64,000 nucleotides of DNA from Alphaproteobacteria bacterium (lineage in GTDB: Bacteria > Pseudomonadota > Alphaproteobacteria > Caulobacterales > Maricaulaceae), in assembly GCA_051252005.1 (NCBI GenBank), contig JBPOEZ010000003.1, positions 164,984-228,983 of the forward strand. Reading direction: 5' to 3'. A model generated the notes under the pieces. The model saw only the letters and a list, made by a program, of their open reading frames with translations. It was not told the DNA's origin and did not search any database. This document shows, one piece after another, positions 4,996 through 34,612 of the stretch. A program made the translations under genes and the position numbers. Numbering within the stretch: position 1 is the stretch's first letter; the number at the start of each line of letters is the position of its first letter.

Positions 4996-5155
4996 GCTAA
5001 TGTCCGCTTTGAGGATCTTTTTCCGTTTTCAACATTCTCACACAATCCACTGGACTTTGTGCGCAAAGGAAGCGGTAGTGTGTTGCGGCCCAATGTGAGG
5101 GTCTTGTCTCGGTAGTAGCGGCCACGATGTGTGGGCGTCATTTACGGAGATTGAA
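4996..5155 (+). promoter_or_regulatory. Conserved 5' leader of recombinase module 1 (3' part only; the head is missing)
   Basis: Highly similar at the nucleotide level to 31684-31844. Contains hairpin candidates (GGCCCA..AGGGTC) and an RBS GGAGA before the ATG at 5156. Confidence 0.6.
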
Positions 5156-5404
5156 ATGGACATTCAAACACAAAAACCCGAAATTAAAGCACCGCGTACT
5201 GGAAGCAAACAAGCCAAGCTCGTTGTCATGCTCTCGCGCAAAAACGGCGTTACACTTGCGAAGGCCAGCGAGACTTTAGGATGGCTGCCGCATACCACCT
5301 CCGCAACCATGACAGGGCTGCGTGGGCGCGGCTATGAGATCACGCGGATTAAACGCGAGGGTAAAGATACGCTGTACGTCATCCATCCTGACGAGGCTGA
5401 GTAA
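5156..5404 (+). CDS. DUF3489-like small winged-helix protein
   Basis: Track ORF 5129..5404. I prefer the ATG at 5156 because it follows GGAGA and matches the start of the paralogue at 31845 (MDxQTQ..IKAPR.GSKQAKLV). HTH-like GVTLAKASETLGWLPHTTSA. Confidence 0.75.
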   Translation: MDIQTQKPEIKAPRTGSKQAKLVVMLSRKNGVTLAKASETLGWLPHTTSATMTGLRGRGYEITRIKREGKDTLYVIHPDEAE

Positions 5405-5904
5405 TGCGGCGGGCGAGCAAGATCGCATCAGAAGTCGCCGAGCTTGAAACACTGGACCGCGTTGCCCTCGCCGCGCAGTGGGAAGCTCTAATGAAACGTT
5501 CGCCGCCTAAGGCCTGTAGCCGTGTGTTTCTCCTCAGGGCTTTATCCTATGAACTGCAAAGTAAGCATGCTCCTGATCTCAGCAAGACGGACATGAGGGC
5601 ACTCAAAGCAAGCTTGGGCAAAGTACCAAGCAGTGCCGTTGAGAATGACAGGGAAGAGGATGCTGCGACCACAACACCTAACGCCAAGACCAAGCCGAGA
5701 CGCAAGGCCCCTGCCCGTCTGGCCCTTGTGCCGGGTGCCCGACTAGTGCGGGAATGGAACGGACAGGCCTATACGGTCTCGGTGATCAAAGAAGGTTTTG
5801 TCTATAAGGACAGAACTTGGAGCTCGCTGAGCGCTATCGCCAAGGATATCACGGGCGCACATTGGTCTGGGCCTCGCTTCTTTGGCTTGGATAAGGCAGC
5901 CTAA
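5404..5904 (+). CDS. DUF2924-like protein
   Basis: C-terminal WNGQAYTVSVIKEGFVYKDRTWSSLSAIAKDITGAHWSGPRFFGL. TAATG overlaps with both neighbouring genes. Confidence 0.75.
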   Translation: MRRASKIASEVAELETLDRVALAAQWEALMKRSPPKACSRVFLLRALSYELQSKHAPDLSKTDMRALKASLGKVPSSAVENDREEDAATTTPNAKTKPRRKAPARLALVPGARLVREWNGQAYTVSVIKEGFVYKDRTWSSLSAIAKDITGAHWSGPRFFGLDKAA

Positions 5905-7598
5905 TGTCTTCCCAGCGCAAACGCTGCGCTGTTTACACCCGCAAATCAAGTGAGGAAGGTTTGCAGCAAGACTTCAACTCTCTGGATGCGCAGGCCGAGA
6001 GTTGCTCAGCTTATATTCTGTCTCAAGCGGGTGAAGGCTGGTCCAAGGTCGATAAGGTCTATTCTGATGGCGGTATATCTGGAGGCCATATGGATAGGCC
6101 CGGTTTGATTGCCTTGATCGCGGATATCAAAGCGGGGCTGATTGATATCATCGTCGTTTACAAAGTTGACCGACTAACACGGTCACTGGCCGACTTTGCG
6201 CGGCTAGTAGATGTCTTTGATAAACATGACGTCTCGTTTGTGTCGATCACTCAAGCGTTCAATACAACGACCAGCATGGGACGGCTAACGCTGAATGTCC
6301 TGCTCTCCTTCGCCCAGTTCGAACGGGAAGTGACGGCGGAGCGTATCAGGGACAAGATCGCAGCCTCAAAGAAACGGGGGCAATGGATGGGCGGCCTTCC
6401 ACCTCTTGGATATGATAATATTAACAAGAAGCTGGTGGCAAATTCTGATGAAGCAAACACAGTCCAGCATATCATGACGCGGTATGTAGAGCTTAAGTCT
6501 GTCACAAAGCTCAAGCATGAACTTGACCTTGATGGTTATCTTACCAAAACCCGCATAACAAGGAAGCAGTCTCAGACAGGCGGCAAGCCCTTTAGCCGCG
6601 GCCACCTCTACAAGCTCCTTTGCAATCCCGTTTACATCGGCAAGACCACACATAAAGGCGTGGTCTTTGACGGACAGCATGATCCTATCGTTGATCAGGA
6701 ATTATGGAATTCGGTACAAGCAGGGCTCAAAGCAAATGCTCCTAAGCGAAGGCGTTCCATTAACATCGCATCGAATAGTCTTCTCACAGGGATGATCTTT
6801 GAAGATAGCGGAGACCGCCTTTCTCCCGTGCATTCTAGAAAGCCCAATGGAAGGCGTTACCGCTATTACATCTCGGCGCGATTATCAAAAGGCGAAATGG
6901 ATGACGGGACGGCCTTGAGGCTTCCGGCCAAACAGATTGAGGGTCAGGTGTTTAGGCGTCTGACAGACCTATTAAGCAATACAGGCCAATTGATGGGTAT
7001 GGTAGACGGCTCACACCTGACACCCCAACAGGTTTCAAAGGTAGAGCAGCATGCAAGCGAGCTAGCCGCGCGCCTCACATCAAACTGCGTTGAAACGCAG
7101 AGAACCCTACTGATTGATATCATTCAACGGATTACCATCTCGCCCAAGGACCTTATGTTGGAGCTTCGGAGGGACGCATTATTTCCAGATGGCATTTGCT
7201 CCCAAAAAGTCAAACTCGAAAACGACGCCATTACGCTCGCCTATCCGCTACAGATGAAGCGGCGCGGCATTGAGACTAAACTCATCATTGGCGGCGTGGC
7301 GTTAGGGCAGCCAGACCCCGAACTTATCAAACTTATTGCCAAGGCCAGAAACTGGTATGGTGGCCTTAAGACGGGACGCTTCAAATCTATCAAAGACATC
7401 GCAGCAATTGAAAAAATGGATGACGGTGATGTCAGCAGAACCTTATCCCTCGCCTTTCTTGCCCCCTCGATCATTCATGACATCATTGCTGGTAATCATG
7501 CTATAAATCTCACGCCAAGAGACTTAAGCCGCAAAGCTAATAGGCTTCCATTAGATTGGGCGCAGCAGCGCAGCTTTCTAGGCATGAAAGCTACCTAA
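5904..7598 (+). CDS. Large serine recombinase (resolvase/invertase N-domain plus recombinase domain)
   Basis: CAVYTRKSSEEGLQQDFNSLDAQ (catalytic Ser region), VVYKVDRLTRS, GHLYKLLCNPVYIGK. 564 aa. No CxxC pairs where a zinc ribbon would normally sit. Confidence 0.9.
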   Translation: MSSQRKRCAVYTRKSSEEGLQQDFNSLDAQAESCSAYILSQAGEGWSKVDKVYSDGGISGGHMDRPGLIALIADIKAGLIDIIVVYKVDRLTRSLADFARLVDVFDKHDVSFVSITQAFNTTTSMGRLTLNVLLSFAQFEREVTAERIRDKIAASKKRGQWMGGLPPLGYDNINKKLVANSDEANTVQHIMTRYVELKSVTKLKHELDLDGYLTKTRITRKQSQTGGKPFSRGHLYKLLCNPVYIGKTTHKGVVFDGQHDPIVDQELWNSVQAGLKANAPKRRRSINIASNSLLTGMIFEDSGDRLSPVHSRKPNGRRYRYYISARLSKGEMDDGTALRLPAKQIEGQVFRRLTDLLSNTGQLMGMVDGSHLTPQQVSKVEQHASELAARLTSNCVETQRTLLIDIIQRITISPKDLMLELRRDALFPDGICSQKVKLENDAITLAYPLQMKRRGIETKLIIGGVALGQPDPELIKLIAKARNWYGGLKTGRFKSIKDIAAIEKMDDGDVSRTLSLAFLAPSIIHDIIAGNHAINLTPRDLSRKANRLPLDWAQQRSFLGMKAT

Positions 7599-7633
7599 GC
7601 TAACAACTCCCCCAACACTTACATCATTGCAAC

Positions 7634-7831
7634 ATGCAGACTGCATCAGGCCGCAAACATCTTGGACGCTAAATTTGGGATCTGAGACGCTCTCGGAAAT
7701 AGGGCTAATTATCGGGCATTTTCCGTCTCATTTCGCGTCTCTACTCTGCATATATCCGGCTAAACCCCCGTTACTAGGGGACTTTCTCAGTCAGGACGTA
7801 TCGGCGGTGAAAAGCGCAGCGTGCGTGGTAG
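7634..7831 (+). repeat. Conserved non-coding arm downstream of recombinase 1 (copy 1 of 2)
   Basis: About 198 nt, near-colinear with 34344-34541. The similarity ends exactly after GTGCGTGGTAG. Contains GAGACG/CGTCTC hexamers and a CCCC..GGGG hairpin. Confidence 0.8.
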
Positions 7832-7839
7832 TGGACGCA
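7822..7839. other. attP-like junction between the two islands (TGCGT-N8-ACGCA dyad)
   Basis: The sequence tgcgtggtagtggacgca straddles the point (7831/7832) where homology with the tRNA-proximal arm stops. Confidence 0.5.
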
Positions 7840-7866
7840 GTCCGCAGATAGCCCGTCTCACGCCCA

Positions 7867-8058
7867 AATTCCCTGCTTTACAGGGAATTAACAGGGAATA
7901 TATTTGTTTTTCACCATAAATTCCGAATTCACCCCCTGCAAGCCACTGAAAACGCTATGAAATTTGGAGGTTTCCCTGCCTAAATTAACAGGGAATTTTA
8001 TTTTGCAAGCAGGGAAAGCTGATCGGGCGGCAGGGAATTACAAATTGGAAACAGGGTA
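7867..8058. repeat. Iteron-like cluster of CAGGGAA(T) motifs (8 copies)
   Basis: Copies at 7867-7875 (reverse complement), 7881-7889, 7892-7899, 7972-7978 (reverse complement), 7989-7997, 8010-8016, 8031-8038 and 8052-8058 (CAGGGTA). The first two form a perfect 9-bp inverted repeat AATTCCCTG/CAGGGAATT. Confidence 0.8.
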
Positions 8059-8064
8059 TATTAA

Positions 8065-8125
8065 AAACGCATAAGCCGCTGACATGGGAGTCCTAAACCG
8101 CCCAAAATAAGCCGCTGGTAATGTT
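8065..8125 (-). repeat. Leader-head repeat copy D (inverted orientation)
   Basis: The reverse complement reads AACATTACCAGCGGCTTATTTTGGGCGGTTTAGGACTCC..., which matches copies A and E. ATAAGCC(G/A)CT also recurs at 8071, 8107 and 8152. Confidence 0.7.
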
Positions 8126-8203
8126 TGTGAATACGGCAGAATTCGTCCAAAATAAGCCACTCATTTTATCTCCTACCAAACCCTGCGGACCTCAACTTGG
8201 TGG

Positions 8204-31485: not shown

Positions 31486-31642
31486 AAAGAGATTTGCCTT
31501 TCAAGGTGACTACTTTCAAACTTAAGGCTGTCAGCGATAGTCTTAGCATCGCCTCAAGAATAGTACGGGGCTAATGACCAATTTGGGGATGGACTTTCTT
31601 TTTTTAAGTGCCCGAAATAGATCGAATACTCTGCATATCGCA

Positions 31643-31844
31643 AACATTACCAGAGGCCGTGTTTGGGCGTTTTAAGACTCCGAGCTAAGGTCGTCTTAGA
31701 GGATCTTTTTCCGTTTTCCATTATCTTCCACAACCCACTGGACTTCCTTCGCAAAGGAAGCAGTAGTGTCTTGCGGCCCTGATGTGAGGGCCTTGTCTCA
31801 GTAGTAGCGGTCACATTGAGTGATCGCCAATCACGGAGACCAAA
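31643..31844 (+). promoter_or_regulatory. Complete conserved leader of recombinase module 2 (head = repeat copy E, 31643-31704)
   Basis: Begins with AACATTACCAGAGGCCGTGTTTGGGCG. Hairpins CTTCCTT-cgca-AAGGAAG and GGCCCT-gatgtg-AGGGCC. RBS GGAGA before the ATG at 31845. Confidence 0.65.
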
Positions 31845-32090
31845 ATGGACACTCAAACACAAACATTAGATATCAAAGCCCCGCGCGCAGGGAGCAAACA
31901 GGCAAAGCTTGTGGCCATGCTATCGCGTAAATCAGGGGTCACGCTTGCAAAGGCGAGTGAGGCATTGGAATGGCTTCCTCATACAACGTCAGCCGCCATG
32001 ACTGGCTTGCGTAAGCGCGGTTACGTCATCACCAGCATAAAACGGGAAACCAAAGACATGCTATATGTCATTCACCCGGATGAGGCATAG
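31845..32090 (+). CDS. DUF3489-like small winged-helix protein (paralogue of 5156..5404)
   Basis: MDTQTQTLDIKAPRAGSKQAKLVAMLSRKSGVTLAKASEALEWLPHTTSAAMTGLRKRGY. Confidence 0.8.
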   Translation: MDTQTQTLDIKAPRAGSKQAKLVAMLSRKSGVTLAKASEALEWLPHTTSAAMTGLRKRGYVITSIKRETKDMLYVIHPDEA

Positions 32091-32092
32091 CC

Positions 32093-32608
32093 GTGGCAAG
32101 CAGCCATAAAGTAGCGGCGGGCCTTCTTGAACTATCAGACATGGACCGCGCGGGATTAGCGGCTAAGTGGCAGGATATTATGCACCGCCCTGCCCCAAAG
32201 GCCGCCAGCCGTATATTTCTCCTTCGGGCCTTATCTTTTGAGCTTCAAAGCAAACATGCACCCGGTCTGGGCAAGGCAGACCTAAAGGCCCTGAGGGCAA
32301 GCTTTGGTAAAATCTCCAGTGTCGGGGCCGACAACATCAGGGAAGATGTAGGCGGCACTGCAGTGAGTGTAGATCAGCCCTTGGGACCTAAGGCTAAGCC
32401 AAAACGGAAGTCTTCGCCTCGCCTTAGCTTAGTCCCCGGCTCCCGCCTTGTGCGCGAATGGAACGGTCATGCCTATACGGTGGCCGTTATCAAAGAAGGC
32501 TTTGTCTATAAAGACAGGACATGGAGCTCGCTCTCTGCCATTGCCAAAGATATCACGGGCGCCCACTGGTCTGGCCCGCGCTTCTTTGGGCTGGATAGTG
32601 CCGCCTGA
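32093..32608 (+). CDS. DUF2924-like protein (paralogue of 5404..5904)
   Basis: GTG start. C-terminus WNGHAYTVAVIKEGFVYKDRTWSSLSAIAKDITGAHWSGPRFFGL. Confidence 0.75.
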   Translation: MASSHKVAAGLLELSDMDRAGLAAKWQDIMHRPAPKAASRIFLLRALSFELQSKHAPGLGKADLKALRASFGKISSVGADNIREDVGGTAVSVDQPLGPKAKPKRKSSPRLSLVPGSRLVREWNGHAYTVAVIKEGFVYKDRTWSSLSAIAKDITGAHWSGPRFFGLDSAA

Positions 32609-34302
32609 TGCCCTCGGGTCGTAAACGCTGCGCGGTCTATACGAGGAAGTCCACTGAGGAAGGACTGCAGCAGGACTTTAACTCTCTGGACGCGCAAGCT
32701 GAGAGCTGCTCGGCCTATATCCTGTCTCAAGCGGGGGAGGGCTGGAGCCATATAGGCAAAGTCTATTCAGACGGCGGTATATCGGGCGGTCATATGGAAC
32801 GGCCCGGTTTATTGGCCATGATTGCCGACATTGAATCGGGGTTAATTGATATTGTTGTTGTCTATAAGGTGGATAGGCTTACCCGGTCTCTGGCCGACTT
32901 TGCCAAGCTTGTAGATGTGTTTGATAAGCACCGTGTGTCCTTTGTCTCAATCACCCAAGCTTTTAATACCACCACCAGTATGGGACGGCTGACACTCAAT
33001 GTCCTGCTCTCCTTTGCCCAATTTGAACGCGAAGTCACAGCAGAGCGTATCAGGGATAAGATAGCCGCCTCTAAGAAGCGCGGACAGTGGATGGGAGGCT
33101 TGCCGCCCCTTGGGTATGATAATATTGATAAGAAGCTCGTGGTGAGTGCTGGTGAAGCCAGAACAGTAAAACATATCATGAAACGCTATGTGGATATGAA
33201 GTCCGTGAGCAAGCTTAAGACCGAACTGGATAGGGATGGCTATCTGACAAAGAGCAGAATGACCAAGAAAAAGTCACAAACGGGCGGCAGGCCCTTTAGT
33301 CGGGGGCATCTCTACAAGCTGCTTTGTAATCCCGTTTACATAGGCAAGATCACGCATAAGGGCGAAGTGTTTGACGGGCAGCATGAGCCCATTGTTGATC
33401 AAGAATTATGGGAGCAAGTTCAGGCGGGTCTGAAGCATAATGCACCCAAGCGCAGGCGATCCATCAACATCGCGTCCAATAGTCTTCTCACAGGTATGAT
33501 ATACGGCGAGGAAGGTGAGCGTCTTACGCCCATCCATTCTAAGAAGCCCAATGGCCGGAGATATCGCTACTATATCTCCGCAAGGTTATCCAAAGGTGAG
33601 ATGGATGATGGGACAGCTCTGCGGCTTCCGGCCAAACAGATAGAAGGCCATGTCATCAACCGGCTGACTGATCTGCTGGGCCATACAAGCCAAATGATGC
33701 AGATGGCTGGCAGCCAGCAGATAAAGCCGCATCAGGCCTCTAAGCTGGACGTGCATGCTAATGAGCTCTCACAGCGCATCACATCAGATAATATTGATAC
33801 CCAGAGAACCGTGCTGATTGATCTCATCTCCCAGATAACTATTAGCCCCAAAGACCTAACACTGGACCTACGAAGAGACGTCTTACTCCCCGAGTGCCTT
33901 AAATCCAGCAAACCCAAAAGCGGAGGCGACAACATCGCCTCCCTCAGCTACCCGCTGCAGATGAAACGGCGCGGGGTTGAGACCAAGCTTATTATTGGCG
34001 GCGTAGCCTTAGGCCACCCGGACCCCGAACTTATAAAGCTGATTGCCAAAGCTAGGGGTTGGTATGACGGGCTTAAGAGAGGACGATATGAATCCATCAA
34101 AGACATCGGGGTCGCCCATAAATTGGATAACGGCGATGTCAGCCGCACGCTGTCTCTCGCCTTCCTCGCTCCGTCAATCATTCATGATATCATTGCAGGA
34201 AAACATCCCGTTGATCTCACGCCAAGAGACATAAGCCGCAAAGCTTCACGGCTACCATTAGATTGGGCTCAGCAGCGCAAGTTTCTGGGCATGAAAGCCT
34301 AG
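32608..34302 (+). CDS. Large serine recombinase (paralogue of 5904..7598, same 564-aa length)
   Basis: CAVYTRKSTEEGLQQDFNSLDAQ. Highly similar to copy 1 over the N-terminal two thirds and more diverged around residues 350-450. Confidence 0.9.
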   Translation: MPSGRKRCAVYTRKSTEEGLQQDFNSLDAQAESCSAYILSQAGEGWSHIGKVYSDGGISGGHMERPGLLAMIADIESGLIDIVVVYKVDRLTRSLADFAKLVDVFDKHRVSFVSITQAFNTTTSMGRLTLNVLLSFAQFEREVTAERIRDKIAASKKRGQWMGGLPPLGYDNIDKKLVVSAGEARTVKHIMKRYVDMKSVSKLKTELDRDGYLTKSRMTKKKSQTGGRPFSRGHLYKLLCNPVYIGKITHKGEVFDGQHEPIVDQELWEQVQAGLKHNAPKRRRSINIASNSLLTGMIYGEEGERLTPIHSKKPNGRRYRYYISARLSKGEMDDGTALRLPAKQIEGHVINRLTDLLGHTSQMMQMAGSQQIKPHQASKLDVHANELSQRITSDNIDTQRTVLIDLISQITISPKDLTLDLRRDVLLPECLKSSKPKSGGDNIASLSYPLQMKRRGVETKLIIGGVALGHPDPELIKLIAKARGWYDGLKRGRYESIKDIGVAHKLDNGDVSRTLSLAFLAPSIIHDIIAGKHPVDLTPRDISRKASRLPLDWAQQRKFLGMKA

Positions 34303-34343
34303 CCAGCCCAACACCTCCCTCTAATCATTTACATCACGCCAGT

Positions 34344-34541
34344 ATGCAGACTACATCTGGCAGGAAACATGTTGGACGCGGAATTTGGGATCTGAGACGC
34401 GTCTCAAAATAGGCCCTATTATAGGCCAATTACCGTCTCTTATCGCGTCTCTACTTCGCTCATATCCGGCTAAACCCCCGTTACTACGGGGCTTTCTCAG
34501 GTAGTACGTATCGGTGGTGAAAAGCGCAGAGTGCGTGGTAG
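34344..34541 (+). repeat. Conserved non-coding arm downstream of recombinase 2 (copy 2 of 2), running into the tRNA 3' end
   Basis: Colinear with 7634-7831. The last bases, TGGTA, are the complement of the tRNA ..TACCA end. Confidence 0.8.
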
Positions 34542-34612
34542 GGGGAGAGGGACTTGAACCCCCGACCAGTCCGTTATGAGCGGACGGCTCTAACCAACTG
34601 AGCTATCCCCCC
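34536..34612 (-). tRNA. tRNA with anticodon CAT (elongator Met, or Ile2 if lysidine-modified)
   Basis: Hand-folded: GGGGGGA/TA/GCTC-AGTTGGTTA-GAGC/C/GTCCG-CTCATAA-CGGAC/TGGTC/GGGGG-TTCAAGT-CCCTC/TCCCCCT-A-CCA. 77 nt with an encoded CCA. A G1-U72 pair rules out the initiator type. Confidence 0.85.

Follow-up and report, generated by a model that had tools for sequence, protein, structure and literature searches.

A helically phased CAGGGAA repeat array at the ends of large serine recombinase islands, a putative accessory arm of their attachment site

The stretch of DNA analyzed here (the window; 64 kb) comprises two tandem islands, and the right end of each encodes DUF3489, DUF2924 and a large serine recombinase of 564 amino acids (Table 1). 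The Pfam domains Resolvase (PF00239) and Recombinase (PF07508) document that the latter is a serine recombinase. An arm of about 235 nt with TGGTAG at its end follows the module in both islands, and the tblastn comparison of module 2 with module 1 revealed identities of 79% for DUF3489, 63% for DUF2924 and 80% for the recombinase. The homology of the two right ends ceases at position 7834, thus identifying position 7835 as the first base of island 2. The first gene inside this island is a convergent MauE-like gene, and its metal-resistance cargo (copper, czc) is bracketed by an inverted pair of 44-nt repeats. The conserved backbone of island 2 is therefore composed of the left-end unit (7835-8059) and the recombinase module, which would be contiguous in the excised circle. 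The cargo-flanking repeat (CAAACATTACCAGCGGC..., about 40 nt) is found again at cassette joints of island 1 (1690-1725, 2443-2478). Island 1 also harbors genes for a ParB-methylase and DUF5681 just left of the window (C10:162,348-164,281), without a large terminase; they are followed by a Schlafen-type helicase gene (PF09848) at positions 3-1595 of the window.

The arms on the recombinase side have a repeat of their own. The arm of island 1 contains GAGAC at 7684-7688 and GTCTC at 7725-7729 and 7737-7741; the same inverted pair is present in the arm of island 2 (34393-34450), and one more GTCTC is located in the P' arm (7855-7859). Many other elements also have the GAGAC...GTCTC pair in their arms; its two halves are mostly 40-45 nt apart, and it lies some 100-150 nt away from the crossover. 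The pair resembles a second candidate binding site for the recombinase, with the size of an att site. Island 2 carries CAGGGAA heptamers on its left end only; its right arm has GAGAC/GTCTC instead.

The heptamers form two groups, box A and box B, which are separated by a spacer (Table 1). Seven of the 12 exact CAGGGAA copies of the window lie within 170 bp. The whole genome of 3.25 Mb harbors 310 copies, 40 of them in seven clusters. At the background rate, a stretch of 170 bp is expected to contain 0.014 copies, and the observed seven are thus far beyond chance (Poisson P(>=7) ~2e-17). The first-pass annotation had described eight copies within about 190 bp; the dense cluster is real, but it consists of seven exact heptamers and one CAGGGTA variant. 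Its further details were recovered as described, namely the perfect palindrome AATTCCCTG-CTTTA-CAGGGAATT (7867-7889, with CTTTA as N5), the two exact ATTAACAGGGAAT repeats (7887-7899 and 7984-7996), the start of the array 32-35 bp inside the island boundary, where the homology of the right ends stops at 7834/7835, and the non-coding nature of the stretch, which is not spanned by any long ORF. The genome-wide count and the pattern searches in other genomes show that the clusters belong specifically to these elements and do not represent a common genomic repeat. An Rfam search of the array stretch returned no family that reached the threshold.

Table 1. Coordinates of the repeat array, the attachment site and the recombinase modules in the window
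Feature	Position	Strand	Remark
Module 1	5129-7598	+	DUF3489 5129-5404, DUF2924 5404-5904, large serine recombinase 5904-7598; Pfam
Recombinase-side arm of island 1	7599-7834	+	Ends in crossover core TGGTAG; 82% identical to 34326-34544
P' half-site TGGACGCAGTCC...CCGTCTCACGCCCAAA	7835-7866	+	Directly right of core TGGTAG
Box A, whole	7867-7899	+	Spacings 12 + 11 nt
A1, TTCCCTG	7869-7875	- (inverted)	Exact heptamer
A2, CAGGGAA	7881-7887	+	Exact heptamer
A3, CAGGGAA	7892-7898	+	Exact heptamer
Spacer between box A and box B	7900-7971	n/a	Sequence not conserved, length constrained
Box B, whole	7972-8059	+	Direct repeats 21, 21 and 22 nt apart
B0, TTCCCTG	7972-7978	- (inverted)	Exact heptamer
B1, CAGGGAA	7989-7995	+	Exact heptamer
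B2, CAGGGAA	8010-8016	+	Exact heptamer
B3, CAGGGAA	8031-8037	+	Exact heptamer
B4, CAGGGTA (variant)	8053-8059	+	One base off the heptamer
44-nt repeat, inner limit of the backbone	8087-8130	n/a	Inverted relative to 31638-31681, 82% complementary
Module 2 (island 2, owner of the array)	31830-34302	+	tblastn and ORFs
Genes of module 2	DUF3489 ~31830-32087, DUF2924 32093-32608, large serine recombinase 32608-34302	+	tblastn
Right arm of island 2	34303-34612	-	Enters 3' end of tRNA-Met(CAT), 34536-34612, minus strand

The bipartite layout is present in seven copies in the host genome, each at an element end. Four of them (C9, C12, C13 and island 2) are located at the recombinase-distal end, 16-32 kb from the DUF3489-DUF2924-recombinase module, and the contigs of two others (C11, C16) contain no module. 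The copy at C10:85,064-85,290 is degenerate; it comprises the TGGTAG core, a P' arm of the island 2 type and an intact box B, but its box A is decayed. It is located about 80 kb left of the window and probably forms the left extremity of the entire tandem array at tRNA-Met, which in that case has a span of about 114 kb. Together with the copies in other genomes, it answers in the affirmative the earlier question of whether the cluster is also present at the left end of island 1 and in homologous elements. The C9 island (C9:357,068-389,860; L160, L161) has a size of 32 kb and encodes a ParB-methylase, DUF5681, the large terminase TerL, a STAND NTPase of 1765 amino acids and a DUF4365-TPR protein; no capsid, portal or tail genes were found in it. 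Island 2 (7835-34544) and the C12 and C13 islands gave no match to DUF5681, TerL or the ParB-methylase, and their arrays are perfect.

The conservation of the array over large taxonomic distances is directly seen in the genomes that were searched. Box A, with one mismatch allowed, was detected in 17 of the 201 genomes of the taxonomic family of the host (eight of 26 genera), while the reversed control pattern was found in none of the same 201. The exact 21-base pattern TTCCCTG-N5-CAGGGAA-N4-CAGGGAA is present in at least 119 further genomes, with about 0.3 expected by chance. The hosts among the matches listed represent many orders of Alphaproteobacteria and several phyla, and the labels of the metagenome-assembled genomes (MAGs) among them include delta proteobacteria, Binatus, Acidobacteriota, Elusimicrobiales, Planctomycetota, Gemmatimonadaceae and others. 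Five viral contigs of IMG/VR harbor the exact box A pattern. In nearly all cases the order is a TGG(T/C)GG core, the P' arm (GCAGTC, GAACC.GTCTC), box A, the spacer, box B and further direct repeats. Of about 150 loci, most have TGG(T/C)GG and then ..GCAGTC..GAACC.GTCTC.. in front of box A, and box B is usually TTCCCTA-N9/10-CAGGGAA. The heptamer is nearly invariant, and no element with a deviating heptamer was found, although the proteins have diverged to a mean identity of 32-50%.

Blastn searches with the array retrieved only chance matches among cultured phages and a single true match among plasmids, which is an integrated copy in a Methylocapsa megaplasmid. The array is absent from the available parts of AcaML1, two human-gut contigs and the Ralstonia phage YO134_1, all of which have related DUF2924 or recombinase genes. 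Terminal repeats marking circular contigs were not found. Many assemblies end 100-300 nt outside box A, which may be due to the repeats and tRNA genes rather than to ends of packaged DNA. Our search of the full-text literature retrieved no description of the array or of accessory sites for large serine recombinases.

The position and orientation of the unit are constant, as is directly evident from the comparison of three gene orders. In all of them the sequence is crossover, P' arm, box A, box B and island interior, and the unit is always located at the element end, with box A outermost, regardless of the gene order. In the first type, represented by island 2, the recombinase is found at the opposite end of the island from the array. 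In the second type, box B is immediately followed by the recombinase and DUF2924 genes, which are encoded on the other strand (L182, L194, L223, L242, L056, L096, L125, L136 and L139). In the collinear forms, the ParB-methylase, DUF5681 and TerL genes are encoded on the same strand as DUF2924 and the recombinase. One example is L133, where the terminase genes precede DUF2924/recombinase and the att site with the array follows the recombinase. Another example is L155, where the terminase genes are located after DUF2924/recombinase and the array after TerL. Two loci (L055 and L150) exhibit mirror-image CCCTGTT repeats, 22 nt apart, in the recombinase-side arm, thereby documenting that the repeats can flank the crossover on both sides. 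In addition, five loci of Elusimicrobiales MAGs (L081, L144, L135, L035 and L048) carry the array 1-119 nt after the stop codon of the recombinase, with neither a recognizable P' arm nor a DUF2924 gene; this layout is a third architecture of the element family.

The geometry of the array was investigated in a set of 128 unique arrays, and the distance between the two boxes was measurable in 86 of them. From the start of box A to the left half of box B, it amounts to 103-105 nt in 62 of the 86 arrays (103 nt in island 2), and the minor classes of 94-96, 113-115 and 124 nt differ by steps of about one helical turn. Box A consists of an inverted pair and one direct repeat, and box B of an inverted pair and one to four direct repeats. 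Successive direct repeats are separated by 21 nt in 98 and by 22 nt in 28 of the 156 cases from 86 clusters (together 126), and most of the other spacings are near 10-12, 32-33, 42-43 or 52 nt. The spacing of A2 and A3 is 11 nt. Given distance classes about 10 nt apart, repeats of 21-22 nt and the 11-nt step in box A, all sites are located on one face of the helix. This phasing, which can be read directly from the spacings, points to a cooperative, wrapped or looped protein-DNA complex. The spacer itself has no conserved sequence across the arrays. The gap between the GTCTC of the P' arm and box A is mostly 8-10 nt and ranges from 4 to 21 nt; the array thus adjoins the core site but is not rigidly phased with it.

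For the DNA-binding protein of such a complex, the earlier note had proposed two candidates encoded in the module. DUF3489 is restricted to this lineage and a few others. Most elements with the cluster from other lineages lack it, for example beside the recombinases of L056, L067, L088, L096, L125, L133, L136, L139 and L155, and it was rejected as the general binder for this reason. DUF2924 regularly accompanies the recombinase but is not universal; our profile search found no DUF2924 gene beside the complete recombinase genes of L054, L081 and L144, all of which have the array. DUF2924 exhibits the near-invariant C-terminal motif SLSxIAxxITGxxWSGPxFFG. According to PMC11342252, which cites Iyer et al., it partly matches the RAMA domain, and this domain is described there and in PMC4738411 as predicted to bind DNA and as a possible reader of adenine methylation. 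The confident structural model of DUF2924 (pLDDT 82.6) comprises an N-terminal helical domain and a small C-terminal sheet-helix domain; its comparison with solved structures yielded no significant match by fold or sequence profile and no DNA-binding fold. The recombinase is the only protein that is always present, and its last ~120 residues are moderately conserved. The putative binder may thus be the C-terminal region of the recombinase, DUF2924 or a host protein.

The gene content of the family raises the possibility of a different function. The conserved backbone comprises the recombinase, DUF2924, sometimes DUF3489 and sometimes the ParB-methylase, DUF5681 and TerL. The family is a capsid-less, terminase-carrying integrative element: its members insert into tRNA genes and have the DUF2924-recombinase pair, and many of them harbor ParB-methylase, DUF5681 and TerL genes, whereas island 2 has only the module and the array. 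A ParB-nuclease fused to an N6-N4 methylase is encoded in 17 array-bearing loci, and in several of them DUF5681 and the large terminase come after it; the ParB-Tls locus has been discussed previously (PMC4738411; PMC6536676). The frequent presence of these genes, which had been overlooked in the first-pass annotation, makes a packaging (pac) site a serious rival, and in fact the main one. The heptamers would then bind the small-terminase-like DUF5681, perhaps aided by the ParB-methylase, and the large terminase would cleave the DNA close to them and load it into a borrowed capsid; for islands without a terminase, the siblings would provide packaging in trans. We regard this scenario as rather unlikely, but it has tangible arguments on its side. 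The three genes often belong to the backbone without any capsid genes (C9 island; G112, G108, G003), and 45 of the best 80 IMG/VR loci from a DUF5681 profile search also carry the recombinase, most of them with ParB-methylase, TerL and DUF2924 within a few kb. Genes of the terminase trio begin no more than 3.5 kb right of the array in 10 of the 54 loci with enough sequence. Moreover, a terminase needs a site in cis, and among the non-coding elements the array is the only further one that is conserved. The N-terminal motif GYxKPPxxxxFxxGxSGNPxGRPxG of DUF5681 is nearly invariant.

The packaging sites of P1 (pac, with 4+3 hexamers) and SPP1 (pacL-pacC-pacR) are repeat clusters, and the arrangement of two short-repeat groups around a spacer of about 70 nt resembles them, as does the combination of methylase and terminase genes in the family. 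However, the array is always joined to the recombination site and is often far from terminase genes or occurs without them. There is no reason why a pac site should border on the crossover in a fixed orientation in every gene order, or have a mirror-image copy on the other arm as in L055 and L150. The array is 11-18 kb away from the terminase genes in the C9 island and G112. Terminase genes are absent from island 2 itself and present in sibling elements, and the arrays of the terminase-less islands (island 2, C12, C13) are perfect. The spacer has no conserved sequence that could serve as a cut site. Furthermore, the 33 DUF5681 loci with neither a large serine recombinase match nor an exact-heptamer cluster lack the array, and none of the cultured phages of the collection searched contains it.

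The spacing of the repeats is also reminiscent of replication origins. Direct repeats at about two helical turns and inverted partial repeats are typical of the iteron origins of RK2, P1 and F and of the SaPI ori, and the direct repeats of 21-22 nt and the inverted partial repeats of the array agree with this pattern. An iteron-type origin or a centromere-like site could maintain the excised circle, and some sibling elements encode a protein with a ParB N-terminal domain. Nevertheless, the replication or partition-like site that the first-pass annotation had offered as another possibility proved to be weak and is in our opinion highly improbable. The conserved backbone lacks a Rep, primase or helicase initiator as well as ParA. 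Unlike iteron origins, the array lacks a conserved AT-rich element for unwinding; the spacer, whose sequence differs between arrays, is by eye not AT-rich in the G+C-rich hosts. Apart from the integrated copy in the Methylocapsa megaplasmid, the plasmid search yielded no similar array.

Transcriptional control was considered as well. The repeats might represent an operator or silencer, i.e. repressor or activator sites that control transcription across the island end, for example of a packaging operon once the element is circular. In island 2, box A overlaps with a promoter-like sequence (TTTACA-16-TATATT, 7877-7904), and in L076, L077 and L112 the last repeat is separated by 60-130 nt from the start of the ParB-methylase gene behind it. 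However, only four of the 128 unique arrays have a sigma-70-like promoter at the position of box A, and the first island gene is constant neither in identity nor in strand (MauE-like here, an insertion sequence in C12, C13 and C16), which makes this explanation very unlikely. A CtrA box of the alphaproteobacterial pattern (TTAA-N7-TTAAC), composed of A2-A3 and TTAA linkers in some copies, was rejected on the grounds that the conserved bases are those of N7 and not the TTAA, and the pattern is probably coincidental. Perfect TTAA-N7-TTAAC matches are present at C11:141,297-141,325 and C13:128,090-128,124.

The fixed position and orientation at the crossover and the helical phasing are best explained by arm-type binding sites. 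We tentatively propose, with slightly more doubt than confidence, that the unit is a putative accessory arm-type array beside the P' half-site, where a phased nucleoprotein complex would control recombination. The idea that the repeats are arm-type sites for an accessory DNA-binding protein had already been put forward in the first-pass annotation; it was partly supported in our analysis and is the best-fitting reading, but DUF3489, which had been suggested there, is not the general binder. Several observations are in agreement with it. The copies are element-specific, and each of the seven in the host genome marks an element end. The heptamer has been conserved despite the divergence of the proteins, and the boxes and direct repeats are helically phased. 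Order and orientation of the unit are the same in the three gene orders, with mirror-image arrays in L055 and L150. Perfect arrays are retained in islands without ParB-methylase, DUF5681 and TerL (island 2, C12, C13). The near-invariant motif of DUF2924 and its partial RAMA match also point in this direction.

From this pattern we infer that a protein binds the repeats, which protein this could be and how it may affect recombination. The array would represent the accessory arm of an unusually complex attachment site, in which the two boxes share a face of the DNA at a distance of about ten turns and directly adjoin the P' half-site on its inner side. The heptamers would be bound by multiple copies of a single DNA-binding module encoded by the element, most likely the conserved C-terminal region of the recombinase or its coupled partner DUF2924 with the RAMA-like domain, and some 200 bp of DNA would thereby be wrapped or looped against the recombinase at the crossover. 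After integration, the complex would sit on attL, and in the excised circle or at a tandem junction on attP. It might set the direction or the efficiency of recombination, or hold the site closed.

A number of findings argue against arm-type sites. According to PMC1470463 and 10.1101/2024.06.11.598349, the large serine recombinases studied use simple sites of less than about 50 bp without accessory sites, recombine short substrates of about 40-50 bp and need a second protein, the recombination directionality factor, for the reversal, which binds the enzyme and not the DNA. DUF2924 is absent in L054, L081 and L144, and its model matches no DNA-binding fold. The gap between GTCTC and box A varies from 4 to 21 nt, and the arrays of L081 and L144 follow the stop codon of the recombinase without a recognizable P' arm. 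Another conceivable function of the array, which we judge to be highly speculative, is a switch that reads methylation. The ParB-methyltransferase would mark the heptamer adenines at packaging, and the RAMA-like DUF2924 or the C-terminal region of the recombinase would read the mark next to the crossover, so that newly delivered, marked DNA integrates and resident DNA is held or excised. If true, the directionality of a large serine recombinase would be set via the DNA and not via an enzyme-binding protein.

Accessory sites at recombination sites are a known kind of device, which would here occur in an enzyme class where it is unexpected. The array resembles the arm sites of lambda-type attP in its short non-core repeats, which form phased groups next to the crossover, as parts of a site that extends over several hundred bp, and occur on both arms in some members (L055, L150). 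As in lambda, the heptamer is distinct from the sequence of the core, i.e. the P' arm (GCAGTC...GTCTC). The lambda system, however, is based on a heterobivalent tyrosine integrase with a separate arm-binding domain and on Xis, IHF and Fis, whereas the present elements have a large serine recombinase of different fold and mechanism. Sites II/III of res, used by small serine resolvases, and the Xer sites cer/psi are comparable in another respect, because accessory DNA of about 200 bp flanks the crossover on one side and appears to form a wrapped complex that controls a site-specific recombinase. The resolvases even belong to the same enzyme superfamily as the large serine recombinase of the array. 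Two differences stand out. The accessory sites of res resemble its crossover site, while the heptamer is unrelated to the core arms, and res sites are present on both partners in direct repeat, while the heptamers of island 2 are located on one partner only. One-sided accessory sites next to the crossover are thus shared with res, but their presence on both partners is not, with the exception of L055 and L150.

Large serine recombinases are tools of genome engineering, as they are thought to need merely two short sites and one partner protein for reversal. The family described here is distributed over several phyla, carries metal-resistance and anti-phage cargo, and maintains about 200 bp of phased repeats at the crossover. 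If these repeats control recombination, they would represent a new DNA-based layer of control for large serine recombinases and possibly a handle for switching them. If they are a packaging signal, they would mark how capsid-less islands enter borrowed virus particles. Either way, the exact box A is a cheap and highly specific marker for island ends in genomes and metagenomes.

A final observation concerns the insertion sequences that represent the first feature inside the island in the C12, C13 and C16 copies. An IS66-type terminal repeat (GTAAGCGTCC...) directly adjoins box B on its inner side or lies within it at C12:71,480-71,520 and C13:127,930-127,960. The same type of repeat is found at or in box B in L015, L016, L036 and L060, and its presence in several independent elements from different genomes suggests that the array creates a preferred target for IS66-type insertion.
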